A stretch of DNA of 64,000 nucleotides from an uncultured Eubacteriales bacterium (GTDB taxonomy: Bacteria; Bacillota; Clostridia; TANB77; CAG-508): assembly GCA_949287075.1 (NCBI GenBank), contig CASEEU010000086.1, positions 204-64,203 on the forward strand, in the 5' to 3' direction. Within the stretch, counting starts at the first letter, position 1, and every line of letters begins with the position of its first letter. The notes below the pieces were generated by a model. It had not been told where the DNA came from. It made no database searches and worked only from the letters and a program-made list of their open reading frames with translations. The position numbers were made by a program, and so were the translations under genes. This document shows, one piece after another, positions 2,745 through 64,000 of the stretch.

Positions 2745-3362
2745 TTATAAAGTATATAAAATATTTTTAAGTTGTTCTTTAATCATATTCAATGCTACTG
2801 CATTGTTGCCACCTTCAGGAACAATAACATCAGCATTTTTCTTGCTATATTCAACAAATTGCTCATGCATAGGTTTAACAGTAGAGCAGTATTGTTCAAT
2901 AACAGAATCTATACTTCTTCCACGTTCATTAACATCGCGAACAAGTCGTCTAATAAAACGAATATCTGCGTCTGTATCAACAAAAATCTTAATATCCATT
3001 AAATTTCTAAGTTTCTCATTTTCAAAAATAAGAATACCTTCAACAATAATGATTTTTTTGGGTTCAACAAGTACAGTTTCCTTTTCTCTATTATGTTTAA
3101 CAAAAGAATAAACAGGATGTCTAATAGATTTACCTTGTTTTAAAAGTTGTAAATGTTTTATTAAAATATCTGTATCAAAAGCAAGAGGATGATCATAGTT
3201 TAATTTCTGGCGTTCTTCAAAAGTAAGTTCATCATGTTGCTTATAATAAAAATCATGACAAAGTACTGTAATGTCATCTCCAAATTCTTTTTTCAAATTT
3301 TCAGCCAATGTAGTTTTACCAGATCCGCTACCGCCGGCTATTCCAATGATTATAGGTGTCAT
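2745..3362 (-). CDS. udk: Uridine kinase
   Basis: P-loop IIGIAGGSGSGKTTLA, then HDFYYK and DTDADIRFIRR. I prefer the start at the second ATG (3362), which is preceded by AAAGGA. The longer ORF reaches 3377. Confidence 0.9.
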   Translation of the reverse strand: MTPIIIGIAGGSGSGKTTLAENLKKEFGDDITVLCHDFYYKQHDELTFEERQKLNYDHPLAFDTDILIKHLQLLKQGKSIRHPVYSFVKHNREKETVLVEPKKIIIVEGILIFENEKLRNLMDIKIFVDTDADIRFIRRLVRDVNERGRSIDSVIEQYCSTVKPMHEQFVEYSKKNADVIVPEGGNNAVALNMIKEQLKNILYTL

Positions 3363-3552
3363 AATATATCCTTTCATTATATCATTAAATTCTCTATATA
3401 TTATAAGACATTTTTCGATATTTCACAAGCTGTAAGGTTAAAAATACTAAGAAATTAGGTATTTATTGGAGATTTTGTTCTATTTACTAGTTTTTATATT
3501 GAAAATCATATATAATATAGAAAATAAAAGTATAAATTTTATGGAGGAAAAA

Positions 3553-4206
3553 ATGAAATTTTATTTATCGTCATTAAAATTGGGAAATAAAACAGAAGAA
3601 TTAAAAAAATGGATAAAAGAACATGATAACAAAATCTGTTTAATACCAAATGCAAGAGATGTATATCCTGATGGTGAGAGAAAAACATCAAAAATTTATT
3701 CAGATGTGCAAGAATTAACAAATTTAGGGTTTGAGGTTACAATACTGTCATTAAAGGATTATTTTAATAAAAAGAATGAATTAGTAAAAAGATTGGAAGA
3801 ATTTCATGCTTTTTATGTAATTGGTGGAAATGCATTTGCCTTAAGACAAGCAATGTATTTAAGTGGATTTGATAAATATTTAAAAACAATAGAAAATAAT
3901 CCAAACTATTTATATATAGGATATAGTGCGGGAATATGTATATTAGCAAAAGACTTGCATGGATTAGAAATGTGTGATGATCCGAATATAAATCCATATG
4001 GTATAGATACAATATGGGAAGGATTGGGATATTTTGATTATTTGTTTCTTCCACATTATCAATCAGACCATAAAGAAACAAAATTAGTAGATGATTGTGT
4101 AGCATATTGTGATAAACATAATCTTAAATATAAAACACTTCATGATGGAGATGTTATTATAGCAGAAATCGATAAAGGAGAAGGAAAAGAAATAGAAAAG
4201 GAGTAA
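3553..4206 (+). CDS. Peptidase S51 (dipeptidase E-like) family protein
   Basis: VIGGNAFAL and the nucleophile motif GYSAGICIL. GGAGG lies 7 nt before the ATG at 3553; the track ORF starts further upstream at 3466. Confidence 0.6.
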   Translation: MKFYLSSLKLGNKTEELKKWIKEHDNKICLIPNARDVYPDGERKTSKIYSDVQELTNLGFEVTILSLKDYFNKKNELVKRLEEFHAFYVIGGNAFALRQAMYLSGFDKYLKTIENNPNYLYIGYSAGICILAKDLHGLEMCDDPNINPYGIDTIWEGLGYFDYLFLPHYQSDHKETKLVDDCVAYCDKHNLKYKTLHDGDVIIAEIDKGEGKEIEKE

Positions 4207-4209
4207 TCA

Positions 4210-4548
4210 ATGGAATTAAAAGAAGAATTAGAATTATTAAATGAAAACAGTACAATAGCAGATATTCAAAAATATATAAAAGATATGAAAAAGGCTAGAA
4301 AATTTGATGGTGTTACAATTGAAAGGGAAATGATGCTATTTATAGAAGAAATAGGAGAATTGGCTAAAGCAATTAGAAAAAAGACAAATGGATCTTTAGA
4401 TATAAATAAAAAATATGATGAGAGTGTTGAAGAAGAATTAGCTGATTGTTTTATTTACTTACTTAGTATAGCCAATATGAATCATGTAGATATATTTAAG
4501 GCATTTAAAGAAAAAGAAAAAAAGAATTGCAATAGAACATGGAAATAA
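4210..4548 (+). CDS. MazG-like nucleotide pyrophosphohydrolase
   Basis: 112 aa. The EEIGELAKAIRK ... EELADCFIYLLSIAN pattern (EExxE...ExxD) is typical of the all-alpha NTP-PPase family. Confidence 0.65.
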   Translation: MELKEELELLNENSTIADIQKYIKDMKKARKFDGVTIEREMMLFIEEIGELAKAIRKKTNGSLDINKKYDESVEEELADCFIYLLSIANMNHVDIFKAFKEKEKKNCNRTWK

Positions 4549-4587
4549 ATAATAAAATTTGTAAAATAATTAATTTAGGGGCAAAAA

Positions 4588-5626
4588 ATGAGAAAAGAAT
4601 TAAAACAAATCGTAGAACCAATTGTAAAATGGTATCAAAAACAGGAAAAAACATTACCTTGGAAACAAGATAAAGAACCTTATCATATATGGGTTTCAGA
4701 AATCATGTTACAACAAACAAGAATTGAAGCAGTAAAAAAATATTATACAAGATTTATGAAAGAATTACCAACTATACACGATTTAGCAATTGTACCAGAA
4801 GAAAAGTTATTAAAATTGTGGGAAGGATTAGGATATTATAGTAGAGCAAAAAATTTAAAAAAAGCAGCAATACAAATTGAACAAGAATATAGTGGAAAGC
4901 TACCAACAAGTTATACAGAATTATTGAAATTATCAGGAATAGGAGAATATACAGCAGGTGCTATTGCATCTATTAGTTATAAGGAAAAAGTACCAGCAGT
5001 GGATGGAAATGTTTTAAGGGTTGTTTCTCGAGTATTAGCAAGTAAAGAAGATGTGTTATTACCAGAAACCAAAAGAAAAATTACGAAAGAATTGCTAGAA
5101 ATCATGCCTGATGAGCCAGGAGATTTTAATGAGGGATTAATGGAATTAGGAGAAAAAATTTGTCTACCAAATACAGTTCCATTGTGTGAAACATGTCCAA
5201 TTCAAGAATTTTGTATGGCAAATAAAAAAAATCTAACAAATGAAATACCTGTTAGAATAAAAAAGCAAAAACGAAAGATAGAAAATAAAACTGTTTTTAT
5301 ATTAAAATATAAAAATGAAATAGCGATTAGAAAACGTGAAAAAACAGGAATATTGGCAAATTTGTATGAGTTTCCAAATGTCATTCGGAGAAACATCAGA
5401 AGAGAAGATTCCCCAAATTTTAGAACAATGGAAAATACAATTTAAAAATTTACATATAAAAAAGCATGCAAAACATATATTTACACATATAGAATGGAAT
5501 ATGGTTGTGTATGAAGTGGAAGTAAAAAACAAAAATAAGATATGGTCATGGGTAACAGAAAAACAAATGGAAAATGAATATCCATTACCAACGGCATTTA
5601 AGAAACTATTAACAAAAGAAAAGTAA
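4588..5626 (+). pseudogene. mutY: A/G-specific adenine DNA glycosylase MutY, split by a +1 frame change near 5376..5392
   Basis: ORF 4588..5445 carries the HhH-GPD and Fe-S parts (WVSEIMLQQTRIEAV, GIGEYTAGAI, the CxxxxxxCxxCxxxxxC region) up to LYEFPN. The NUDIX-like C-terminus (HIFTHIEWNMVVYEV) continues in frame +1, in ORF 5336..5626. Confidence 0.75.
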
Positions 5627-5651
5627 GAAAAAATAAATAATTTCAAAAAAA

Positions 5652-5801
5652 CTATTTATCATTTAAAGCAGCAAGGGTGGATAACGTATCACCAAGTTGT
5701 GTGAAAAAAGCAGCTAAAATTGCAAGTTCATCTTGTGACTTATCTTTTGCAATTTCACAAGCGAGTAAAGAAATAAAGTTAACAAAAGCACATGAATTCA
5801 T
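5652..5801 (-). CDS. Small conserved-looking 49-aa protein (not on the ORF track)
   Basis: My own translation is MNSCAFVNFISLLACEIAKDKSQDELAILAAFFTQLGDTLSTLAALNDK. GAGGTG lies 7 nt upstream of the ATG. It resembles ~50-aa clostridial proteins with an LAC.IAK....L....F.QLGDTL pattern. I recall these being catalogued as a DUF family, but that is from memory and unverified. Confidence 0.5.
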   Translation of the reverse strand: MNSCAFVNFISLLACEIAKDKSQDELAILAAFFTQLGDTLSTLAALNDK

Positions 5802-5883
5802 ACAAACACCTCATATTATAATATGAAAAAGACTTGTAGCTGTGATAGCAAACCAGGCTTTTTCTAAAGAAGAAAAGATTGAA

Positions 5884-5912
5884 TTGATATAGTAAAAGAC
5901 TTATGATATAAT
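5884..5912 (+). promoter_or_regulatory. Sigma-A-type promoter with extended -10
   Basis: TTGATA - 17 nt - TATAAT, with TG one base upstream of the -10 (tgatataat). Confidence 0.5.
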
Positions 5913-5937
5913 AAAGCAAAAAAGAAGGAAGTAAGAA

Positions 5938-6420
5938 ATGAAAATTGGATTTACAATAGGAAAATTTGCTCCATTACATAAAGGGCATCAGTATCTAATA
6001 GAAAAAGGTATTAAAGAAATGGATGAGTTTTATGTCATTGTATATGAAACAAACGTCATAGACATACCTCTAGAACAAAGAGCTAGATGGATAAAAGAAC
6101 TGTATCCAGAAGTAAAGATTTTATTAGCAAAAAATCCACCATCACAATATGGATTAGATAAAGAAAGTGTAAAAATTCAAATGGATTATTTAAAAAATAT
6201 TATAAAAGATATTCCTGTTACCCATTTCTATAACAGTGAACCTTATGGAAAATATGTTGCAAAAGATTTACATATAGAAGAAGTACAAGTAGATAGACTT
6301 AGAGAAAAATATGCGATTAGCGGAACAAAAATTAGAAAAGATGTAAATGAAAATAAAGAATATATAGAAGAAATAGTATATAAAGAAATAAAATCAAGCA
6401 AAAAAGATGAAAGTTGTTAA
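5938..6420 (+). CDS. Cytidylyl/adenylyltransferase-fold protein, NadR-type NMN adenylyltransferase-like
   Basis: GKFAPLHKGHQYLI (the HxGH motif) and ISGTKIR (an ISxT-like motif). 160 aa. Confidence 0.6.
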   Translation: MKIGFTIGKFAPLHKGHQYLIEKGIKEMDEFYVIVYETNVIDIPLEQRARWIKELYPEVKILLAKNPPSQYGLDKESVKIQMDYLKNIIKDIPVTHFYNSEPYGKYVAKDLHIEEVQVDRLREKYAISGTKIRKDVNENKEYIEEIVYKEIKSSKKDESC

Positions 6421-6443
6421 GAAAAAACTTAGCAACTTTTTTT
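6411..6443 (+). terminator. Intrinsic terminator overlapping the stop codon
   Basis: aagttgttaag / cttagcaactt stem (one G-U pair) followed by tttttt. Confidence 0.55.
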
Positions 6444-6611
6444 GTTAAATATAAAAAAAAAGAGATGTTTGGTTAATAAGAAAAAATTAAGAAATACCAA
6501 AAAGACTTCATAAAATATTAAGAAAAAATCAATTGGAAATCAATAAATATATGTTAGAATTTGAAACAGTAAACAAGTTAAAAATTTTTAAAGGGGAGGA
6601 ATGATGAATAT

Positions 6612-7518
6612 ATGGAAACCATATTAAAATGTGAAAACTTGTGTAAGACATTTGGAAAAAGAGATATCTTAAAAAAAGTTTCTTTAGAAATAAAGCAAGG
6701 AGATATTTTAGGATTCATTGGACCAAATGGTGCACGGAAAAACAACAACCATAAAATTAATTTTAGGATTACAAAGCATTACTAGTGGAAAGGTAACCAT
6801 CAATGGATATGATATTGAAAAAGAGTTCACACATGCCATTAAGAAAGTAGGAGCCATTGTTGAAAATCCAGATATGTATATGTACTTATCAGGATATCAA
6901 AACTTAAAATTAGTAGCCAATTTATATAAAGAAATCACAACAGAAAGAATTGATGAAGTCGTAAAATTGGTAAAATTAGAAAACAGAATTCATGACAAAG
7001 TATCTAAATATTCTTTGGGAATGAGACAAAGATTAGGAATTGCACAAGCCATATTGCATAAACCAAATTTATTAATATTAGATGAACCAACGAATGGATT
7101 AGATCCAGAAGGTATTAAGGAAATGAGAGAGTTATTAGTAGATTTAGCAACAAAGGAAAAAATGGCCATTTTAATTTCTAGTCACAATTTAGCAGAATTA
7201 GATAATTTTTGCACAAAAGTATGTATTATTAAAAATGGAGAAGTGATAGAAACCAGTGAAATTTCTGAAATCAAAAAAGAAACAAGTCAAGATTTACGAA
7301 TATTTGAAGTAGATGATGTAAATCGTGTTAAAAATATGGTAAAAGATGTGATTATAATCGATAATCATAAATTTAAGATAAATGTACCAAAAGAAGAGGT
7401 ACCAGAAATGATTGAAAAATTAGTAGAAAACAAAATTAAGATTTATGAAGTCAAACAAGAAGAAAAAACATTAGAAGATGCATTTTTTGAAAAGACAGGG
7501 GGGAATGTCATTGAGTAA
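6612..7518 (+). pseudogene. ABC transporter ATP-binding protein with a 1-nt insertion inside Walker A
   Basis: From the ATG at 6612 the read is METILKCENLCKTFGKRDILKKVSLEIKQGDILGFIGPNGA, and the frame then stops at 6783..6785. The +1 frame continues GKTTTIKLILGL..., followed by LSGGxxQ-like SLGMRQRL and Walker B LLILDEP. In ggtgca-c-ggaaaaacaacaacc the c at 6735 is the extra base. Confidence 0.8.
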
Positions 7519-54938: not shown

Positions 54939-55913
54939 ATGTGTACTTGTGTAACATTCAAAACAAAAGATTATTATTTTGGAAGGAATTTAGATTTAGA
55001 AGTTACTTTTGGAGAAAAAGTAGTCATAACACCTAGAAATTATGAGTTTACTTTAAGAAATCATACTAAAATGAAAACAAAATATGCCATGATAGGAATG
55101 GGAACAGTTGTAGATGATTATCCATTATATGCAGATAGCGGAAATGAAAAAGGATTATGTATGGCAGGATTATATTTTCCAGGAAATGCTGTTTATTTTG
55201 AAGAAAAAGAAAATGCTATAAATATTGCTTCATTTGAATTAATTCCATGGTGTTTAGGAAATTTTTCAAGTATAGCAGAATTAAGAGAAGTGTTAAATAA
55301 GATAAATATAACCAATCAAACATTTCAGAAAAATATGCCAGTTGTGGATTTACATTGGATAATTAGTGATGAAAAAGAATGTATAGTGTTAGAACAAACG
55401 AAAAATGGATTACAAATATATGAAAATCCCTATGGTGTTTTAACCAATAATCCACCTTTTTGTTATCATCAAATGAATATCAATAATTATATAAATATAT
55501 CAGCTAAATTTCCAACCAATACGTTTTCAGAAGAGCTTTCCTTAAAACCATATGGACAAGGAATGGGAATGATAGGTTTGCCAGGAGAGGTTACACCAAC
55601 TGCTAGATTTGTCAGAGCAGCATTTTATAAATTCAACTCTATCACAGATGAAGATGAAGAAAGTTCAATTTCTCAATTTTTTCATATCTTAGATTCTGTA
55701 TCAATGATAAAAGGAAGTGTTATTACAAAAGAAAATCACTATGATATGACAACCTATTCTTCTTGTATAAATGCAAGTAAAGGTATATATTATTTTAAAA
55801 CTTACTATAATAATCAAATTAATGCAGTTTTGTTAAATGAAGAAAATAAAAATAGAGATACATTGGAAATATATGAATTACCTCAAAAACAACATATACA
55901 ATATATGAATTAA
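54939..55913 (+). CDS. Choloylglycine hydrolase family protein (bile salt hydrolase / penicillin V acylase type Ntn hydrolase)
   Basis: MCTCVTFKT..YFGRNLD gives the Cys2 nucleophile. 324 aa. It has NNPPF and the typical length. Confidence 0.85.
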   Translation: MCTCVTFKTKDYYFGRNLDLEVTFGEKVVITPRNYEFTLRNHTKMKTKYAMIGMGTVVDDYPLYADSGNEKGLCMAGLYFPGNAVYFEEKENAINIASFELIPWCLGNFSSIAELREVLNKINITNQTFQKNMPVVDLHWIISDEKECIVLEQTKNGLQIYENPYGVLTNNPPFCYHQMNINNYINISAKFPTNTFSEELSLKPYGQGMGMIGLPGEVTPTARFVRAAFYKFNSITDEDEESSISQFFHILDSVSMIKGSVITKENHYDMTTYSSCINASKGIYYFKTYYNNQINAVLLNEENKNRDTLEIYELPQKQHIQYMN

Positions 55914-55942: not shown

Positions 55943-56968
55943 ATGAAAAATATTAAAGACTATAGTTTAGAAGAATTAAAAGAAGAACTAAAAGAAATCG
56001 GAGAAAAGCCATTTCGAGCAGAACAAATATATAAATGGCTTTATGAAGCAAGAGTTTCTGATTTTGATGAAATGACCAATTTATCATTAGAATTAAGAGA
56101 AAAATTAAAACAAATCTATGAGATAAAAGAATTTAAGATATTAAAAAAACAAGTGGCATCAGATGGAACAAGAAAATACTTATTTGATGTCTTAGACGGA
56201 AATGCCATTGAGACTGTACTAATGGAATATCATCATGGATTTAGTATTTGTGTATCTTCGCAAATTGGTTGTAAAATGGGATGTAAATTTTGTGCATCAA
56301 CAGGAATTCCATTTGCAAGAAATTTAAGCTCAGGAGAAATTATTGAACAAATTATGGCAGTAGAAAGAGATGCCGATGTTAGAATTTCAAATATTGTATT
56401 TATGGGAATAGGAGAACCATTAGATAATTATGATAATGTCGTAAAAGCAATTCGAATTATCAACCATCCTAAGGGATTAAATATAGGAGCAAGACATATT
56501 AGTATATCTACAAGTGGTTTAGTACCAAAAATATATCAACTGGCAGAAGAAAACATACAATGTACATTATCGATTTCTTTACATGCAACAACAAATGAGC
56601 AAAGAAGTAAAATGATGCCTGTAAACAATATATACCATATAGAAGAACTATTACAAGCCTGCAAGGATTATATCGAAAAAACACATAGAAGAATCTCATT
56701 TGAGTATGCATTAGCAAAAGAAAATAATGACAATCTAGAAGATGCCAAACGATTAGTGAAATTGTTAAAAGGAATGCTTTGTCATGTGAATCTAATTCCA
56801 ATCAACAAAATAGAAAATGGAGCATATACAAAAAGCTCAAATGAAAATATTATGAAGTTTAGAGATTATTTAAATGACCATGGGATTGTGGCAACCATTA
56901 GAAGAGAATTAGGTTCAGACATTGATGCAGCATGTGGACAATTAAGAAGAAAAAATTTAAAACGATGA
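55943..56968 (+). CDS. rlmN: Radical-SAM 23S rRNA/tRNA adenine-C2 methyltransferase RlmN
   Basis: FRAEQIYKWLY, DGTRKYLF, IETVLM, CVSSQIGCKMGCKFCAS, GIGEPL, and DIDAACGQL. Confidence 0.8.
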   Translation: MKNIKDYSLEELKEELKEIGEKPFRAEQIYKWLYEARVSDFDEMTNLSLELREKLKQIYEIKEFKILKKQVASDGTRKYLFDVLDGNAIETVLMEYHHGFSICVSSQIGCKMGCKFCASTGIPFARNLSSGEIIEQIMAVERDADVRISNIVFMGIGEPLDNYDNVVKAIRIINHPKGLNIGARHISISTSGLVPKIYQLAEENIQCTLSISLHATTNEQRSKMMPVNNIYHIEELLQACKDYIEKTHRRISFEYALAKENNDNLEDAKRLVKLLKGMLCHVNLIPINKIENGAYTKSSNENIMKFRDYLNDHGIVATIRRELGSDIDAACGQLRRKNLKR

Positions 56969-57068
56969 CTTTGGGGACGGAGCAAAAAATCATCATTTAA
57001 TCTATAAAAGTTTTATAAAAATCTTTATAGAATGATGATTTTTTGCTCCGTCCCCAAAGTCATCGTTT
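56960..57068. repeat. 109-bp near-perfect palindrome; the 38-bp perfect arms include the stop codons of both convergent genes
   Basis: aaacgatgactttggggacggagcaaaaaatcatcatt (56960..56997) is the exact reverse complement of 57031..57068. The 33-nt centre is itself partly palindromic. Both genes end ...K R stop, encoded by aaacgatga. Confidence 0.9.
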
Positions 57069-59351
57069 CAGAATTTCAAGTAAACTTTCAATATCTTTTT
57101 TACAATTCATCATTTCATAATCTTTAACAGCTTTTTGACAAAACTCTTGTGCTTTTTCAAAGTCATTTATATAGACAGAATATATGGTTTGTAATCGATA
57201 ATACAAAGCTTCATTTCGAATATCATCTAAATCATTGTCTTTTAGAAAATTTTCGCAAGCTTTTAATTCTGAATCAGCTTTTTCCAAAAGATTAGTATTT
57301 TTGGTAGTTGCATAATTTTCTAATAGTAAAGAAATTAATAAAAGGCGATAATCAGCTTGACCACGAGTGAAGTTGGCAAGCTTTGCTTCTTCTAATCGCT
57401 GAATTAACATTTCGTATTTTAAATCAAAAGTATTTTCAATTTTTAGATAACATCTGGTAATCCACAAATCTGTTACCAATTTTCTGTATTCGTTAATATA
57501 AGGAAAATAGTTTGCTTTGATATTCATCCATATATCATAGCTTTCTTTATAATCCTTTAAACAGTTACAAGTATACAAAGCTTTTACATGATAAAACAAG
57601 CAAACAATACGTTTTTCTAAAGAATCTTTTTCTTTGTCAACAATTTTTGAGGCAATAGCTAAATATTTCTCAGCTTCTTCTTGATTTTGTGATTTAGACA
57701 TAATATTAATATAATCACATAAAGCTTCTAATTCTTCATTTTTATCTTGAATTTCATTTGCCATTTTCGCTCTTTTTAAATGAGGAGAATCTTCTCCTTT
57801 TTCCCACATACCTCTAACATAAATGTAGTATTTTAAATTTCTAATTATCGTAATATATTCTTTATATAATTTGTTTTCTTCTAGCATATTTAAAACTTGC
57901 TTTGTAATGTTCCATTCATCTAATTCATCAAATAATTTTAATTTAGAAATATCATTATAACATTCACCAACATAGGCAGATTTATCTATATAAAATTTTG
58001 CTAATTGTTTCAAAAATGTTTCTTTATCAAAATCTTCATCAGAAGCATTTACTAAGACAAGTGTTTTGATTAAATTGTGCATATCTAATCTAGGATTGTT
58101 TTGAATAATTGGGATTAATAAATCATTTGTATAACATTCTGTAATCGCTTCTTGCCAGTCAGTTGATAATATATCTAAATGTAATATGTAAGAAACGAGT
58201 TCAATTGAGATGGTATATTTGAAATTTGCACAAATAATGACGATTTTTTTAGCGATTGGACTTAATTCTTCCCATATATCATGAATGATTTTTTCTGACA
58301 TGAGTTTATAATCTTCATTTGTTTTTGTATATTTAGAAATGGCATTTTCCAAAGAGATTCCAAGTTTATTGGCATTCACAATTTTTTTCATTAAATAGAT
58401 AGAGGCAAATGGAATGCCACCAGTAATGGAATATAATGTGTCAACTAGTGAAGAGTGCATATCCATAATTTTTTTAAAATCTTCAGTTGTATAAAGCATA
58501 GCTTCTAGCTCTTCTTTAGAAATAAAGTCATTAATACAAAAACTAGAACAATAAGTATCTAATGCATTCTCATATTGATGATAAGGGGTAGAAGTAATCA
58601 TTACGATTTTTGAAAATTTAGAAAAATTCTTTATACATGTAATGGTTTCATCTTGGATAATGTCATCATCAAAATCGAATATAAGGATAGACTTACTATT
58701 TTTTATAAACTCAAGACAAGCATCTTGTTTTTCTTCAGGTTTGATTTCTGCTTTATTTTCTAAATTGAAAAGCAAAATGGTATCTAAAATCGTAGATAGC
58801 TGATGTTCCTTTTTTAGATTGATCCAAATCATATTTTCAAATTTGTTTTTTAAGCTCAAATCATACATATATGCCATAACAGATTTTGATTTTCCACCTA
58901 ATTTATATCCATAAATATAAGCAATATTAATAGGATGATTGATAAAATCATCTAAAAATGAAGTGAGTTTTTGAGATCGAATAATTTTGCTTAAGTCTTG
59001 AGGAATTAAATTATTTTTTGTTTGGATAGTTGTATCCTGAAAAACAACTGTATTGGTAGCAGATAAATAATTTTTAGCAAATGCATCAATCTTAAAATCA
59101 TCCACTTGTACTAATTTTGCATATTCTAGAATTCCTTGAAGAAAACTAGGAATGTCTTTGGGAATACTACCAGTTAAGAATTTTCGGATACTCACTTCTG
59201 CATAATGTGTATAATCTGCAATTCTTGTATAGATATATGTTTTACTAGGCAATTCTCCTTTTATATTATGTTTTTTTATAGATAGTTTCATTTCATTAAT
59301 AAAATCAGATAATAATTTTGCTCTATTTGTTTTTAAGATATCTTGTTCCAT
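57060..59351 (-). CDS. STAND-class regulator-like protein: XRE-like HTH + NB-ARC NTPase + TPR-like repeats
   Basis: The HTH-like segment is IADYTHYAEVSIRKFLTGSIPKD. Walker A is GYKLGGKSKS and Walker B is ILIFDFDDD. KIVMITSTP follows, and the GxP motif is TGGIPFA. The C-terminal ~350 aa are helical repeats. GGAGG lies 5 nt before the ATG at 59351, and an extended -10 is upstream. Confidence 0.7.
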   Translation of the reverse strand: MEQDILKTNRAKLLSDFINEMKLSIKKHNIKGELPSKTYIYTRIADYTHYAEVSIRKFLTGSIPKDIPSFLQGILEYAKLVQVDDFKIDAFAKNYLSATNTVVFQDTTIQTKNNLIPQDLSKIIRSQKLTSFLDDFINHPINIAYIYGYKLGGKSKSVMAYMYDLSLKNKFENMIWINLKKEHQLSTILDTILLFNLENKAEIKPEEKQDACLEFIKNSKSILIFDFDDDIIQDETITCIKNFSKFSKIVMITSTPYHQYENALDTYCSSFCINDFISKEELEAMLYTTEDFKKIMDMHSSLVDTLYSITGGIPFASIYLMKKIVNANKLGISLENAISKYTKTNEDYKLMSEKIIHDIWEELSPIAKKIVIICANFKYTISIELVSYILHLDILSTDWQEAITECYTNDLLIPIIQNNPRLDMHNLIKTLVLVNASDEDFDKETFLKQLAKFYIDKSAYVGECYNDISKLKLFDELDEWNITKQVLNMLEENKLYKEYITIIRNLKYYIYVRGMWEKGEDSPHLKRAKMANEIQDKNEELEALCDYINIMSKSQNQEEAEKYLAIASKIVDKEKDSLEKRIVCLFYHVKALYTCNCLKDYKESYDIWMNIKANYFPYINEYRKLVTDLWITRCYLKIENTFDLKYEMLIQRLEEAKLANFTRGQADYRLLLISLLLENYATTKNTNLLEKADSELKACENFLKDNDLDDIRNEALYYRLQTIYSVYINDFEKAQEFCQKAVKDYEMMNCKKDIESLLEILKR

Positions 59352-59445
59352 ATGTTCCTCCATCAATAACAAAATCTATCTTTATTATACCATTATGTTA
59401 TATAAAAGTACAAGGATAGAGGGTAATATCTCCATAAAGAAAATA

Positions 59446-59472
59446 AAAATTGATAATTTTTTTATCAATTTT
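59446..59472. promoter_or_regulatory. Perfect 11-bp inverted repeat in the divergent control region (candidate operator)
   Basis: aaaattgataa-ttttt-ttatcaatttt, lying between the divergent STAND gene and the RtcB-like operon. Confidence 0.4.
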
Positions 59473-59631
59473 AAAAAACTGTATTTTGAAAAGTTTAATA
59501 ATTGAGATTAACATAAAATAAAATAGGCATATATTGAGCAGGAAACTAAATGCTTGAAAATGCGAAACTTGAATTCTTTAGTAAAGGATTTGTAACCAAA
59601 AACATTTAATGTAAAAAAAGGAGGAGACAAT

Positions 59632-60705
59632 ATGATTTATAATTTGACATTAAATGATAGAACACAGAAGAAAGTGCTTCGGGAGTTAGAAACAACAGAA
59701 AAGTTGATTTCGAAAGTTGCGACAAAACTTTCATCAACACAGAAAACTTGTGATATTTATGCAATGTCTGATTTAGGGATTGCACATAATGTTACAAGAA
59801 TGAGAGGTGGTTTCTTTACAGGAGCTGCATATGTCTGGGAACAACCAGATACTCCATTCATTCCTGTAGATACTACAATCAATGTATGTGGCACAGCTTT
59901 GTATAAAATAAATTCTGATATGAATATAACAGAATTTAGAAAGAGATGTGAGAAAGCTTTAGCAGATACATCGAAGTATGACTGGAATTTTACCAATGGT
60001 AACCATTTTATTTCTTTATGTTATTCGGAAAATAACATGGGAATGCAGGAAGGTTACTATATGCTTGTCCATGCTTCAGCATGCGAATACAAAGAAGAGT
60101 TATATCCAGTTATAGGAAACTGGTACTATAATAGTATTGTAACAGAAAGATTGGGAGAGTACCAGTATCTGAGATTTATTAAAGGAGAGAAAGTAGTAAG
60201 ATTTTATCAAATAGCAAAAATGCTGGAATCCTTTAATAGAGAAAGAAATTATAATTTTTGCAAGCAAGTTTTATCAGAAAAAATGGAAAATGAAATCTTG
60301 AATGTAGCTCATTATGGAATGCCAAGTATATATGAAGTATTGATTGGTGTTCAGAAAACTGCAGGACTTGCAACGTTATTAACAAGTCTAGGAAAAAATG
60401 TGTATATAGTGAAGAAAAAAGAAAAATCTGAAAATCATTATATTCCACATGGTTTTGGCTTAGAATTACCAGAAAATAGTGATTTTGCCTATTGCGAAAA
60501 TGGTATACAAATAGGTAAAAAGGAATTTTTTTCTGGTAGTATTACAATTGGAGAAGATGCGATTAACCGGCATGGATTTCCTGAAAAGGATAACGAGCTG
60601 AGAAATTATGCTAGAAAAATAGCAAAAATCAATGAATTAGAGATTTGTGCAGAATTGAAACAGATTTGCAGTTTTTCTACAAAGGGTTTTAAAATATGGA
60701 GGTAA
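59632..60705 (+). CDS. Divergent RtcB-like protein (putative RNA 3'-phosphate ligase superfamily member)
   Basis: Its motifs run collinear with my memory of E. coli RtcB: YAMSDLG / VMPDVHLG; PVDTTINVCG / GVDIGCGM; TNGNHFISL / GTGNHFIEI; MLVHASACEY / MLHSGSRGIG; NVAHYG / NCHHNY; SLGKNVYIVKK / SMGAKSFIVRG; IPHGFG / CSHGAGR; and a C-terminal ..KG. RBS AAAGGAGGAG. Confidence 0.45.
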   Translation: MIYNLTLNDRTQKKVLRELETTEKLISKVATKLSSTQKTCDIYAMSDLGIAHNVTRMRGGFFTGAAYVWEQPDTPFIPVDTTINVCGTALYKINSDMNITEFRKRCEKALADTSKYDWNFTNGNHFISLCYSENNMGMQEGYYMLVHASACEYKEELYPVIGNWYYNSIVTERLGEYQYLRFIKGEKVVRFYQIAKMLESFNRERNYNFCKQVLSEKMENEILNVAHYGMPSIYEVLIGVQKTAGLATLLTSLGKNVYIVKKKEKSENHYIPHGFGLELPENSDFAYCENGIQIGKKEFFSGSITIGEDAINRHGFPEKDNELRNYARKIAKINELEICAELKQICSFSTKGFKIWR

Positions 60706-60709
60706 GTGT

Positions 60710-61258
60710 ATGGTGCTATATGTAACAAGACACGGTGAAACAGCCTGGAACTTGTATGGAAAAGTACAAGGAAAAGCAGATATTTTGCTTAATAGTAAAG
60801 GAATAGAACAGGCAAAAGAAACAATGGAAAAGCTAAAAGAAGAAAACATTGATTTCATTATCTGTTCTCCTTTAAAAAGAGCAAGACAGACGGCTGAGAT
60901 TATTAACGCAGAGAAAAACATTCCCATTATCTTTGATGAAAGAATTTCTGAAAGAGATTTTGGAGAAATGGAAGGAATGTCTAAAGATGATTTTGATTTT
61001 CAGGGATTTTGGAATTACGAGAAAAATGTAACTTATGAAAAAGCTGAAAATATCAGAGTTTTCTTTAATAGAATATTTTTATTTTTAGATGAGATAAAAA
61101 AGAAATATAAAGATAAGAATATTTTATTTGTAACTCATGGAGGCGTTAGTATAGCCATTAACTGCTATTTCAATGGAATACCTGAAAGTGGAGCATGTTT
61201 ACCACTATGTATCAAAAACTGTGAGGTAAAAAGTTTTCATTTTCAAATAACATATTAG
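60710..61258 (+). CDS. Histidine phosphatase superfamily protein (PGAM-like), canonical active site
   Basis: YVTRHGETAWN, SPLKRARQTA, ERDFGEMEG and VTHGG. GGAGG lies 7 nt upstream, inside the 3' end of the preceding gene. Confidence 0.8.
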   Translation: MVLYVTRHGETAWNLYGKVQGKADILLNSKGIEQAKETMEKLKEENIDFIICSPLKRARQTAEIINAEKNIPIIFDERISERDFGEMEGMSKDDFDFQGFWNYEKNVTYEKAENIRVFFNRIFLFLDEIKKKYKDKNILFVTHGGVSIAINCYFNGIPESGACLPLCIKNCEVKSFHFQITY

Positions 61259-61268
61259 GAGAGTGCAT

Positions 61269-61799
61269 ATGAAACAAATCATTTTTTTGCGACATGCAAA
61301 GACTGAAATGAATGAAAAATGTCGGTTTTGTGGCATAATAGATACAGGTATCACAGAAGAGGGAAGAAGACAGGCAGAAAAAATGCAAGAAACATTTAAA
61401 GAATATCATTTTGATGCAATGTATTGTTCACCTCTTAAAAGAACAAAACAGACTTTAGAGGCTATTTTCCAAAATCGGGAATTCATTGAAGAGGATGGAT
61501 TTATAGAAATCAGTCTTGGAGATTGGGAAGGATTGAAAAAGGAGACTATTAGTCAGAAACTTCGAAAAGCCTTTCAGCGAGGAGAGTATGCACCACCTCA
61601 TGGTGAAAAGCATGAAGACATAGAAGCAAGAGTAAAAGAAGCAATTGAAAGAATCTTTGCAACTTATCCGGACGGTTCTGTAATTCTGGTATGTACAAGT
61701 AACGGAATTATGCGAACAATTAAGAGAATCTATGGTATCAAAACTGAAAAAATGATGTCAGGCAACTTAGAATTTTTTTCTTTGAAGAGAGAAGCGTGA
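61269..61799 (+). CDS. Histidine phosphatase superfamily paralog with a degenerate second catalytic His
   Basis: IFLRHAKTEMN, SPLKRTKQT and ISLGDWEG are present. The position of the (T/S)HGG motif reads CTSNG. AGGAGAG lies upstream of the ATG at 61269. Confidence 0.7.
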   Translation: MKQIIFLRHAKTEMNEKCRFCGIIDTGITEEGRRQAEKMQETFKEYHFDAMYCSPLKRTKQTLEAIFQNREFIEEDGFIEISLGDWEGLKKETISQKLRKAFQRGEYAPPHGEKHEDIEARVKEAIERIFATYPDGSVILVCTSNGIMRTIKRIYGIKTEKMMSGNLEFFSLKREA

Positions 61800-61849: not shown

Positions 61850-61928
61850 TGAGTGAAATATTGTTCAATAAGGAAAAATTTACAAAATACTAAATGTATG
61901 GTATAATTAAATATGTGGAAGTGATGCT

Positions 61929-62633
61929 ATGAATAAAAAAGATATAAAAGCTATTTTGATGTCAATGAGAACAAGTGAAAATGATGCAATGATAAATAAA
62001 CTATTAGGAAAAATAGATATGATAGATGATATAGTATTACAAAATGCAGTTGAGCAAGTTGGAGGGACAAAAGAGGATGTAAGAGCATTTTGGGAAAAGA
62101 AAATATCAGGAAAACGATATGACAAAACAGAAAAACATATACCTATAAATGATATGTTTTTCTATGGAATATCTGAAAATAATATTCATCTTCATTTGCC
62201 TGTGGATTTACATCAAATGATTTCCCAAAAAGGAATTTCTAGAACAATTGATATAGTTAATTTATATCTATTAGATGCGATAGATAGACTAAAAGCTTTA
62301 AAGGACGAGGGCTACTACAAATTTCAAGGAAAAACTGGTATATATATGATTTCTCCTTTGTTAGCAGGAAGAGAAAGAAAATTTTTAGAAAATTTAGATT
62401 TTAGTACTAGAATTTACAAGAAAAAAGAGTTAAACAATGAAGAATTTTTAAAAGAAAATATCGAGGCTAAGTTAGCCACAGATGTTTTTGGAAAAGGAAA
62501 ACAAGTGGGAGTAGCAAGTATAAAATTTGATACAATATCTTCAGAAGAATGGCAAGAGAAAAAACAACAAGTAATAAAAGATTTGGAAAGCAAAGGAATT
62601 ACGTTAAATGAGAAGAAAAGTGTAGAAAAATAA
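61929..62633 (+). CDS. Hypothetical 234-aa protein, no recognisable motif
   Basis: It has its own extended -10 promoter (tggtataat at about 61900) and the RBS GGAAGTGA. Its composition is like the host background. Confidence 0.5.
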   Translation: MNKKDIKAILMSMRTSENDAMINKLLGKIDMIDDIVLQNAVEQVGGTKEDVRAFWEKKISGKRYDKTEKHIPINDMFFYGISENNIHLHLPVDLHQMISQKGISRTIDIVNLYLLDAIDRLKALKDEGYYKFQGKTGIYMISPLLAGRERKFLENLDFSTRIYKKKELNNEEFLKENIEAKLATDVFGKGKQVGVASIKFDTISSEEWQEKKQQVIKDLESKGITLNEKKSVEK

Positions 62634-62740: not shown

Positions 62741-62781
62741 GTGTCCCTTTTGGACAAAAAATGTCCATTTTGACACGTCCC
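62741..62781 (-). repeat. Structured 3'-UTR element directly after the spoIVA stop; related to 21435..21480
   Basis: The minus strand reads tag-ggacgtgtcaaaatggacattttttgtccaaaagggacac. The inner stem is tggaca/tgtcca with a U5 loop. The outer stem is gtgtc/gacac. No U-run follows. Confidence 0.55.
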
Positions 62782-64000
62782 TAAAGGATAATACAGATTA
62801 ATCCGCCACTTCCTTCATTAACAATTCTTTCTAATGTTTCTTGTAACTTAATTTGTGCTTCTTCAGGCATTTTAGCAAGTTTGGTTTGTAAGCCTTCATT
62901 TACCAATTCATGTAAGCTTTTTCCAAAGATATTTGATTCCCAGATTTTTTGAGGTTCACTTTCAAATCCAGAAAGTAAGTAATTGACTAATTCTTCAGAT
63001 TGTTTTTCAGAACCAACGATTGGGCAAACTTCAGTTGCAACATTTGTCTTTATAAGGTGAATAGAAGGCGCCATGGCTTTTAGTTTTACACCAAATTTAG
63101 AACCTTGTTTTACCATTTCTGGTTCTTCTAAGATTAATTCATCCATTGAAGGGGTGACAATTCCATAACCTTTTCTATTAACTTCATCTAGTGCATAAGC
63201 GATTTTATCATATTTCTTTTTGACATCAGCCAATTCAGAGATAATGCTAAATAAATCACCTTCATTAGAAACAGGAACACCAGTGATTTCTGTCAATACT
63301 TGGTAGAATAATTCTTCTTTTAACGTAATTTCTACGTTAACTCTTCCTGTACCTAATTGAATATCTGTTATAGAAGTTTTTGAAATGATTTCTGTTTGTT
63401 TAATGGTATCTGCACAGCCTGAGATTTCTTTTAGGATATTTACATTAGAAAAAGCATCTTTAATTTCTTTAAATAATTCTGTTTTTAAAGGGTGTGACAT
63501 ATCTAATCCATCAATCCATCTAGGGAATTTGATGCAAATTTGGTCAACGGGAAATTCATATAATACTTTAGAAAACATGGTATTGATATTTTCAATCGTC
63601 AAATATTCACAATTAAGAGGCATAACAGATGTATTGTATTTTTCGCTTAGTTCTTCTGCAAGCTCTTTGGTATAATCTGAATCAGGGTCATTTGAATTTA
63701 ATAAAATGATAAATGGTTTGTTCAAGGATTTTAATTCATTAACAACTCTTTCTTCGGCTTTAATATAATCTTCTCTAGGAATGTCTGTAATAGTTCCATC
63801 AGTTGTTACTAAAACACCAATGGTAGAATGTTCTTCAATTACTTTTTTTGTCCCAATTTCAGCAGCAGTTTCAAAAGGAATTTCTTCCTCAGACCAAGGG
63901 GTCTTTACCATTCTAGGCATGTCATCTTCTAAATAACCAATCGCATTATCTACTAAATAGCCAACACAATCTACTAATCTTGCCTTAAATTTTAAATTAT
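62781..64000 (-). CDS. spoIVA: Stage IV sporulation protein A (partial; the N-terminus lies beyond the window end)
   Basis: PWSEEEIPFETAAEIGTKKVIEEHSTIGVLVTTDGTI... The reading frame stays open upstream of the Met at 63920 (..KFKARLVDCVGYLVDNAIGYLEDDMPRMV), matching the SpoIVA middle region. Confidence 0.9.
   Translation of the reverse strand, partial: NLKFKARLVDCVGYLVDNAIGYLEDDMPRMVKTPWSEEEIPFETAAEIGTKKVIEEHSTIGVLVTTDGTITDIPREDYIKAEERVVNELKSLNKPFIILLNSNDPDSDYTKELAEELSEKYNTSVMPLNCEYLTIENINTMFSKVLYEFPVDQICIKFPRWIDGLDMSHPLKTELFKEIKDAFSNVNILKEISGCADTIKQTEIISKTSITDIQLGTGRVNVEITLKEELFYQVLTEITGVPVSNEGDLFSIISELADVKKKYDKIAYALDEVNRKGYGIVTPSMDELILEEPEMVKQGSKFGVKLKAMAPSIHLIKTNVATEVCPIVGSEKQSEELVNYLLSGFESEPQKIWESNIFGKSLHELVNEGLQTKLAKMPEEAQIKLQETLERIVNEGSGGLICIIL

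Follow-up and report, generated by a model that had tools for sequence, protein, structure and literature searches.

What does an RtcB-type active site do in a protein that no RtcB model recognizes? We addressed this question for an open reading frame (ORF) at positions 59632–60705 of a 64,000-nucleotide stretch of DNA from an uncultured Eubacteriales bacterium (contig CASEEU010000086.1, assembly GCA_949287075.1), which as a whole is referred to here as the window. An earlier note, made from the sequence alone, had read the ORF as an RtcB-like protein with a rewired active site. To our knowledge, RtcB is the only family that seals 3'-phosphate and 5'-hydroxyl (5'-OH) ends by way of a histidine-guanosine monophosphate (GMP) intermediate, and it has been treated so far as a single, fairly uniform family. 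We favour, with moderate confidence in the reading taken as a whole, that the ORF product belongs to the RtcB superfamily, in which it is compact and has diverged extremely far, and that it is an enzyme paired with a phosphatase under the control of a STAND-type regulator.

The reading frame and its homology to RtcB

The gene and its ribosome-binding site are located as follows:
59632–60705, plus strand: gene for a predicted RtcB-fold enzyme of an unannotated family (357 amino acids, ATG start, intact ORF)
59619–59628, plus strand: Shine-Dalgarno sequence AAAGGAGGAG, read from the sequence and graded strong, ending 3 nucleotides before the ATG of the RtcB-like gene

All of the motifs that the earlier note had quoted were found in the ORF. 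The 357-residue protein carries AMSDLG (with D47), VDTTINVCG (D80, C86), GNHF (N124/H125), LVHASAC (H147), NVAHYG (H227) and PHGFGL (H273), and has a K351-G352 pair near the C-terminus that is followed by five more residues. The counterparts in E. coli RtcB (MG1655), i.e., MPDVH, VDIGCG, GNHF, LHSGSR, CHHN and SHGAGR, with VKG at the C-terminus, are arranged in the identical order. Collinearity with RtcB from the N-terminus to the C-terminus, which had been proposed by eye, was thus borne out for the order of the motifs; the proposed equivalence of MIYNL and MNYEL at the N-terminus was not significant on its own when the N-terminal 112 residues were compared with the RtcB N-terminus by profile. 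As had also been noted, the protein is shorter than typical RtcB, by approximately 50–125 residues, and the spacing between the Cys motif and GNHF is 38 residues versus 89 in E. coli RtcB.

Searches with sequence models did not connect the protein to RtcB. There was no Pfam or NCBIfam match at E ≤ 10, PF01139 and the NCBIfam RtcB models included, and at the same permissive threshold these models failed in all 30 diverse family members tested (0/30 for PF01139). Neither phmmer nor an hmmsearch with the family profile retrieved an RtcB from the PDB sequences, PADLOC and PHROGs returned nothing meaningful for the RtcB-like protein, and no match was found in a plasmid database. BLASTP against E. 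coli RtcB aligned the GNHF block alone (E 0.008). Two further matches, to P_C10 (17.5 bits, sub-threshold against a cutoff of 27) and to ribosomal protein uL15 (E 0.14), were dismissed as chance. Judged by sequence, the protein stands outside the curated RtcB family (PF01139; Enzyme Commission number 6.5.1.8), and we use "RtcB-like" as the correct term because neither PF01139 nor NCBIfam gives a match.

The relationship emerged from structure and from deeper profiles. An AlphaFold2 model built from a 30-sequence alignment had a mean predicted local distance difference test (pLDDT) of 93.5 and a predicted template modelling (TM) score of 0.91. Foldseek against the PDB at E ≤ 1e-3 returned six matches, all of them RtcB (P. 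horikoshii 1UC2, 4DWQ and 4DWR; T. thermophilus 2EPG; human RTCB 8ODO and 8ORJ), with E-values from 4e-7 to 3e-6 and query-normalised TM scores of ~0.5, while the next match was at E 0.11. Against BFVD there were two matches at E ≤ 1e-3, both from phages and both annotated as 3'-phosphate/5'-hydroxy nucleic acid ligase. The better of them, the compact phage RtcB A0A8S5PN56 (Myoviridae sp., 370 amino acids; E 3.4e-10, TM 0.60/0.58), was the best structural match overall; it is similar in size and annotated as a canonical ligase, has 16% identity, and was compared by structure only.

For the profile–profile comparison, approximately 230 family sequences were aligned with hhalign against a profile of E. 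coli-type RtcBs plus 80 viral RtcBs. These diverse profiles gave a score of 44.9, an E-value of 3.4e-5 and a probability of 72% over 293 columns, in contrast to reversed, column-shuffled and unrelated control profiles, which scored 14–22 with E-values of 0.04–0.5. This run superseded an earlier one with a narrow RtcB profile, in which the HGxG region only was aligned at a probability of 6%. Relaxed-gap runs yielded very low E-values that are uncalibrated and were not used; only the alignment path was taken from them. The homology that had first been seen by eye therefore survived both comparisons, with significant structural and profile matches exclusively to RtcB. The homology of the family to RtcB is remote but real, and the modelled protein has the RtcB fold.

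A family without a name

A word-indexed search retrieved 155 clusters at 90% identity, and an exhaustive profile search retrieved at least 329 cluster representatives at 50% identity; for 131 of these the E-value was 1e-30 or lower. None of the members retrieved is named, or assigned a Pfam domain, in the sources searched. Eighty species-representative loci were kept, all from metagenome-assembled genomes of uncultured gut Clostridia, Bacilli or Eubacteriales, and neighbourhood counts given below were taken over these loci where the flanking sequence suffices. The protein is thus one of a sister family of RtcB with at least 329 clusters, mostly from uncultured gut Firmicutes, which is invisible to Pfam, NCBIfam and PADLOC. 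An earlier description of the family was not found in the searchable literature; a mention in the 2016 RNA-repair survey of Burroughs and Aravind is possible. The fold and the core chemistry are known, while the family, its partner, its regulator–operator pair and the fusion architectures described below are absent from Pfam, NCBIfam and PADLOC.

Genes for Mob_Pre, RepA_N or serine recombinases were present in 23 of the 80 loci, almost all of them outside the group with a STAND-like gene. In one species representative (L030:6001–7084) the RtcB-like gene is split into two ORFs (6001–6324 and 6347–7084), possibly by a frameshift, as a pseudogene or by an assembly error.

A retained catalytic core in rewired surroundings

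In P. horikoshii RtcB, Cys98, His234 and His329 bind metal 1 and Asp95, Cys98 and His203 bind metal 2; guanine recognition falls to Glu206 and Lys480, nucleophilic attack to His404 and contact with the gamma-phosphate to Asn330, and Asn202 contacts the phosphate and the 5'-OH (PMC9745838). Arg238 (E. coli Arg189) clamps the 5'-OH strand and is needed mainly for the sealing step (PMC8051266). Residue numbering was mapped between the E. coli and P. horikoshii proteins, and conservation was counted over approximately 250 homologs, distant fusion proteins included.

Residues aligned in confident hhalign columns, with their conservation in the family:
N124/H125: E. coli N167/H168, P. horikoshii N202/H203; N124 248/249, H125 248/249
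H147: E. coli H185, P. horikoshii H234; 252/253
H227: E. coli H281, P. horikoshii H329; 247/248
H273: E. coli H337, P. horikoshii H404, with P-H273-G-x-G opposite S-H337-G-A-G; H273 239/240, G274 239/240, G276 239/240
N-terminal residues, with their conservation in the family:
D47: 246/252
D80: 246/252
C86: 236/253, with Asp in 15 others
Positions at which an RtcB residue is replaced:
Glu206 equivalent, position 128: S/I/M/T in the family
Arg238 equivalent, position 151: N/C/K/A/S/I in the family, Cys in the window protein
Asn330 equivalent, position 228: invariant Tyr
Arg408 equivalent, position 277: L/Q/V/K in the family
His67 equivalent, position 49: Gly

The His residues of GNHF, LVHAS, NVAHY and PHGFG, which the earlier note had taken for metal ligands and nucleophile, were aligned confidently with their RtcB counterparts. 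The Cys of VCG, which had been named together with them, was aligned with E. coli C78 in low-confidence columns only. This alignment of C86-G87 with C78-G79, and of IYAMSD47LG with IAVMPD48VH, was obtained only after the RtcB insertion between the Cys motif and GNHF (about 50–70 residues) had been deleted from the profile; such insertion-deleted profiles, for which three boundaries were tried, recover the N-terminal equivalences freely. E. coli Asp75 was placed opposite D80 or N84, varying with the gap settings, again in low-confidence columns. The sites can be assigned putatively, with C86, H147 and H227 as ligands of site 1 and D80 or N84, C86 and H125 as ligands of site 2, N124 as phosphate contact and H273 as the nucleotidyl-accepting nucleophile. 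Aspartate is also able to bind metal, and the replacement of C86 by Asp in 15 of 253 sequences might mean an altered metal preference or redox sensitivity.

Around this core, the rewiring described for the window protein holds true family-wide in the alignment of homologs. In the profile alignment the His of PDVH is replaced by Gly, the Arg of HSGSR by Cys and that of HGAGR by Leu, and the Asp-to-Cys spacing is longer than that of RtcB, all in agreement with what had been read from the motifs. For Lys480 the picture is mixed: S349 was aligned to E. coli K407, yet the K-G pair lies two residues further on. The family has invariants of its own, namely R56, N84, E152, K154, Y228, M230-P231, R313 and an N-terminal helix with D9, T11 and T22. 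In the alignment, the family has lost what gives RtcB its guanine specificity and its hold on the 5'-OH strand, together with two further phosphate-contacting residues. The proposal of a nucleotide or substrate different from that of RtcB is consistent with this pattern.

These data bear on the alternative that the protein is a fast-evolving orthodox RtcB, i.e., a GTP/Mn-dependent 3'-phosphate/5'-OH RNA ligase for the repair of transfer RNA (tRNA) or ribosomal RNA, with the phosphatase encoded next to it unrelated or accessory. It would share the fold and keep the metal and nucleophile residues, as observed, and its closest structural match is a compact 370-residue phage RtcB; in addition, RtcB repair operons with dedicated regulators are known (PMC7790460, PMC9223846). 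We nevertheless regard it as unlikely, given the failure of PF01139 and NCBIfam in all 30 members tested and the lack of a conserved equivalent of Glu206, of Arg238/E. coli Arg189 with its role in sealing (PMC8051266), of Asn330 and of Arg408. The family-wide linkage to a His_Phos_1 phosphatase and the TIR and PLD-like fusions described below are, moreover, foreign to RtcB repair operons.

A histidine phosphatase as constant partner

Two phosphatase genes lie directly downstream of the RtcB-like gene:
60710–61258, plus strand: His_Phos_1 phosphatase HP1, 182 amino acids (PF00300 E 7e-46, 156.8 bits against a cutoff of 21.7)
61263–61799, plus strand: His_Phos_1 paralog HP2, 178 amino acids (PF00300 E 5e-40, 137.7 bits against a cutoff of 21.7)

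HP1 starts 4 nucleotides past the stop codon of the RtcB-like gene and HP2 another 4 nucleotides on, and the three genes are predicted to form an operon in the window. The catalytic set of HP1 is complete (R7, H8, R57, E81 and H143). HP2 has RHA for RHG and a Ser for the second catalytic His, and this apparently degenerate paralog is possibly impaired or regulatory. Among the partner sequences, R7, H8, R57 and E81 are kept in at least 72 of 73–74, and Ser replaces the second catalytic His in 15 of 71. Both paralogs co-occur in the close clade.

The phosphatase of the RtcB-like family is almost always adjacent. In 57/73 to 59/75 species loci with enough sequence, the next gene downstream is a co-directional His_Phos_1 gene, and the pairing extends to lineages that are ~40% identical and lie in unrelated flanks. 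The nearest NCBIfam model for both phosphatases is CobC (TIGR03162), with 120.5 bits for HP1 and 102.3 bits for HP2, below its cutoff of 162.9.

In three loci (L087:4697–6454, L089:3244–5022 and L090:3591–5428) the partner is a three-domain protein, composed in order of His_Phos_1, a glycerophosphodiester phosphodiesterase domain (E 1.7e-35 to PDB enzymes of this type) and a C-terminal region of ~160 residues with FHVHLYGR; the L090 gene is seemingly split into two ORFs. A HIT domain was considered for the C-terminal part and rejected, the best HIT-like PDB match being at E 0.97. At L029:2601–3683 the RtcB-like gene is located between RlmN and SpoIVA with neither a STAND-like gene nor a phosphatase, and the cassette is evidently reducible.

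A putative STAND-like regulator and its candidate operator

Upstream of the operon, the following features were identified:
57060–59372, minus strand: gene for a STAND-like protein of ~763–770 amino acids, divergent to the RtcB-like gene, listed start TTG
59450–59468, no strand assigned: perfect palindrome TTGATAA-N5-TTATCAA (core TTGATA-N7-TATCAA) in the divergent intergenic region, a candidate operator

Translation of the STAND-like gene may in truth begin at an ATG located a few codons into the listed frame. Its product matched NB-ARC (PF00931) below the cutoff of 23.5 bits (20.4 bits, E 3.5e-4); weak NB-ARC matches, the best at E 2.4e-5, were also obtained in 11 of 22 STAND-like homologs, and weak TPR matches were seen too. 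Read by eye, GYKLGGKS would be the Walker A and ILIFDFDDD the Walker B motif. The N-terminus, which is the most conserved segment, looks helix-turn-helix (HTH)-like, and the C-terminus looks helical or TPR-like. No PDB relative of the protein was found, and its family comprises 51 unnamed clusters.

The STAND-like gene is present divergently upstream of the RtcB-like gene in 26 of the 80 loci, including lineages that are 43–51% identical and have unrelated flanks. The palindrome occurs as a single copy in the 64-kb window and was found in 25 of the 26 STAND-linked loci versus 1 of the 54 others, with its arms kept and its spacer varying. Based on this co-occurrence, the palindrome is probably an operator and the STAND-like protein the probable regulator of the operon. 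Neither a riboswitch nor another RNA element was found in the leader or elsewhere in the window. Promoter and terminator scans performed no better than on shuffled sequence and were not used as evidence.

Other loci have other regulators in the upstream slot. In 31 loci it is occupied by a LysR-type regulator on the same strand, and in one subclade by an XRE-type HTH gene. The members of this subclade (L010–L012 and L070, P0114-type, 400 amino acids) carry an insertion of ~40 residues between the Cys motif and GNHF; their RtcB-like gene is preceded by the XRE-type HTH_3 gene and followed by a DUF4325 gene that replaces the phosphatase.

The partner and the regulators raise the possibility of a small-molecule, phosphodiester-forming enzyme, in which a His-bound nucleoside monophosphate (NMP) activates a phosphomonoester metabolite and couples it to an alcohol, and the phosphatase removes a remaining phosphate. 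A formal parallel is the assembly of the cobamide nucleotide loop by CobU (His-GMP), CobS and CobC, or cytidine diphosphate-alcohol chemistry. That the α-ribazole phosphatase CobC is the nearest model for both phosphatases, that LysR-type regulators stand upstream in 31 loci, that three loci encode a phosphatase with a glycerophosphodiester phosphodiesterase domain attached, and that the polynucleotide-clamping Arg is lost, as would fit a non-polymer acceptor, all speak for this explanation. The CobC match is nevertheless sub-cutoff (120.5 versus 162.9), there is no linkage to genes for cobamide or lipid biosynthesis, the flanks differ between lineages, no riboswitch was found, and the TIR and other effector-head fusions and defence-island neighbours described in the next section are hard to square with housekeeping metabolism. 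On balance we find it doubtful.

Fusion relatives and a possible link to defence

Thirty-nine family members are 500–1060 amino acids long and carry the RtcB-like domain at the C-terminus. The N-terminal heads of these fusions are TIR domains in 9 of the 39 and calcineurin-like phosphoesterases (Metallophos) in three, and HD-CE, DUF4062 and STAND P-loop heads were also seen; PADLOC effector models recognise some of these heads. The head is separated from the RtcB-like domain by a conserved region of ~260 amino acids, the model of which (pLDDT 79.7) matches PLD-superfamily structures only, and marginally (E ~1e-3, TM ~0.35). In this PLD-fold middle domain (e.g., P0303, residues ~205–470), His, Arg and Lys residues are conserved (IDHxV...R.T.LWT....YKG) without the canonical HxK(x)4D. 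Neither the window nor any of the 80 species loci encodes a counterpart of this domain, and the fusion N-termini show no similarity to the STAND-like protein or the phosphatases of the window.

A His_Phos_1 gene abuts or overlaps the fusion stop codon in four of five contexts (P0303, P0321, P0268 and MT837290.1); in the fifth, the contig ends 414 bp past the gene. Because the pairing with the phosphatase persists in the fusion contexts, the RtcB-like enzyme and His_Phos_1 can be regarded as the invariant core, with regulators and heads as the variable parts. Some of the fusions lie in defence islands, and among the genes around them are those for a ThsB-like TIR protein, a caspase-like protease, a Tmn-like protein and a phage integrase. 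MT837290.1 (L178; 7.2 kb, labelled "UNVERIFIED Bacteriophage sp.", from human faeces) was the sole match in the phage collection; it is unannotated and only possibly viral. It encodes an 856-residue PLD-like/RtcB-like fusion at 3133–5703 and an overlapping His_Phos gene at 5700–6230.

The position of the RtcB-like domain, as the constant C-terminal part behind variable heads, is the usual position of the sensor in single-chain immune proteins. The protein could accordingly be a non-catalytic or single-turnover sensor, which binds or traps phosphate-ended RNA fragments or nucleotides from infection or damage and passes the signal to fused effectors (TIR and others) or, in the window genome, to the STAND-like protein. 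RtcR, which senses damaged tRNA ends (PMC7790460), is a precedent for ends of this kind acting as signals. This explanation seems to us improbable: the complete catalytic constellation is invariant down to ~25% identity, which is rare for sensors, the window protein is neither fused to nor seen interacting with an effector, and the always-present phosphatase partner, predicted to be active, suggests enzymatic turnover.

A tentative and broader possibility is that the RtcB-like protein and His_Phos_1 form the core of an unrecognised immune or stress-signalling system, in which a phosphate-ended nucleotide or RNA serves as the signal: the RtcB-type His-NMP enzyme would produce, cap or consume it, and the phosphatase would reset it. 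This core would be wired to transcription (by STAND-HTH proteins, as in the window, or by LysR- and XRE-type regulators) or, in defence islands, to effectors that kill or deplete nicotinamide adenine dinucleotide, with TIR, PLD-like, metallophosphoesterase and HD domains. If true, the RtcB fold would have a biochemical role, new to it, other than RNA ligation. Since TIR, PLD-like and phosphoesterase domains are fused to the RtcB-like domain in defence islands, an involvement of the family in phage defence or RNA-damage signalling can be tested directly.

Proposed mechanism and comparison with known systems

Under the reading that we favour, the RtcB-like protein would be an active two-metal enzyme that self-nucleotidylates on His273 with a nucleoside triphosphate, not necessarily GTP. 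The NMP would be passed to a substrate phosphomonoester, which may be a nucleic-acid end with a 3'-phosphate or 2',3'-cyclic phosphate or a phosphorylated nucleotide, and the transfer would either cap the phosphate or activate it for attack by a hydroxyl, with the acceptor engaged otherwise than in canonical RNA ligation. The enzyme would pair with the co-transcribed His_Phos_1 phosphatase (HP1 intact, HP2 degenerate), which may work on the same phosphate-ended substrate or on the product, for example by opposing the enzyme and so setting a threshold, or by trimming. The STAND-type NTPase would control the operon by way of the palindromic operator and induce it in response to a signal. Because this control resembles that of rtcBA by RtcR, the cassette probably serves as an inducible module for damage response or conflict. 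If the enzyme is active, RtcB chemistry would be extended to a new nucleotide or acceptor, and the STAND-type regulator with its conserved operator would offer a clean unit for studying the induction of the cassette.

Several points weigh against this reading. The biochemical function of the RtcB-like protein is inferred, and C86, D80/N84 and D47 are matched to RtcB ligands in low-confidence columns, less securely than the His residues. The HTH of the STAND-like protein was unconfirmed by any model tried. A phosphomonoesterase beside an enzyme that would require a phosphomonoester is not obviously cooperative, and LysR-type regulators and the phosphatase variant with a glycerophosphodiester phosphodiesterase domain would be no less expected in small-molecule metabolism. 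In the clade of the window the flanks are housekeeping genes (RlmN and SpoIVA), and the conflict reading comes mainly from distant fusions: PADLOC matched none of the window's RtcB-like, STAND-like, HP1, HP2 and 234-residue proteins (the last encoded downstream of the operon), and PHROGs likewise matched none of the window's proteins. PADLOC matches were confined to the heads of the distant fusions and to their neighbours.

Compared with RtcB itself (PF01139; 1UC2/4DWQ, 2EPG, 8ODO and the E. coli protein), the family has the fold and the collinear motif order in common and keeps equivalents of His234, His329, His203, Asn202 and His404; candidate equivalents of Cys98 and Asp95 lie in low-confidence columns. 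The partners differ, being RtcA, archease or PrfH for RtcB and a His_Phos_1 phosphatase for the RtcB-like family. The rtcBA/RtcR and RtcB2-PrfH modules (PMC7790460, PMC9223846) likewise comprise an RtcB-type enzyme, a second end-processing or helper protein and an adjacent signal-sensing regulator. In those modules the second protein is the cyclase RtcA or PrfH, whereas it is a phosphomonoesterase in the RtcB-like cassette; RtcR is a sigma54/CARF activator, whereas the regulator in the window would be a STAND-type NTPase whose N-terminus is HTH-like and whose operator is a palindrome, replaced elsewhere by LysR- or XRE-type proteins.

The distant fusions share variable effector heads and ThsB-, caspase- and Tmn-like neighbours with single-chain immune proteins, such as TIR-, nuclease- or phosphoesterase-headed STAND/Avs-like proteins and the TIR protein of Thoeris. 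They differ from these in that the constant part is PLD-like plus RtcB-like and the phosphatase is encoded by a separate gene, a combination that no PADLOC model covers. Unlike single-chain immune proteins, the RtcB-like protein of the window carries none of the fusion-type additions.

Other genes in the window

Downstream of the operon, positions 61929–62633 hold an ORF of 234 amino acids, whose product has no Pfam, NCBIfam, PADLOC or PHROGs match and which is preceded at 61879–61907 by an 11/12 match to a sigma-70-like promoter. It lies probably outside the cassette, with homologs in three close loci only (L021, L022 and L024). Further genes of the window are one of the choloylglycine (bile salt) hydrolase family at 54939–55913 (PF02275 E 3e-104, with an N-terminal Cys), RlmN at 55943–56968 and SpoIVA at 62781–63920, the last of which is cut by the window end; these three genes are consistent with an origin from a gut Firmicute.

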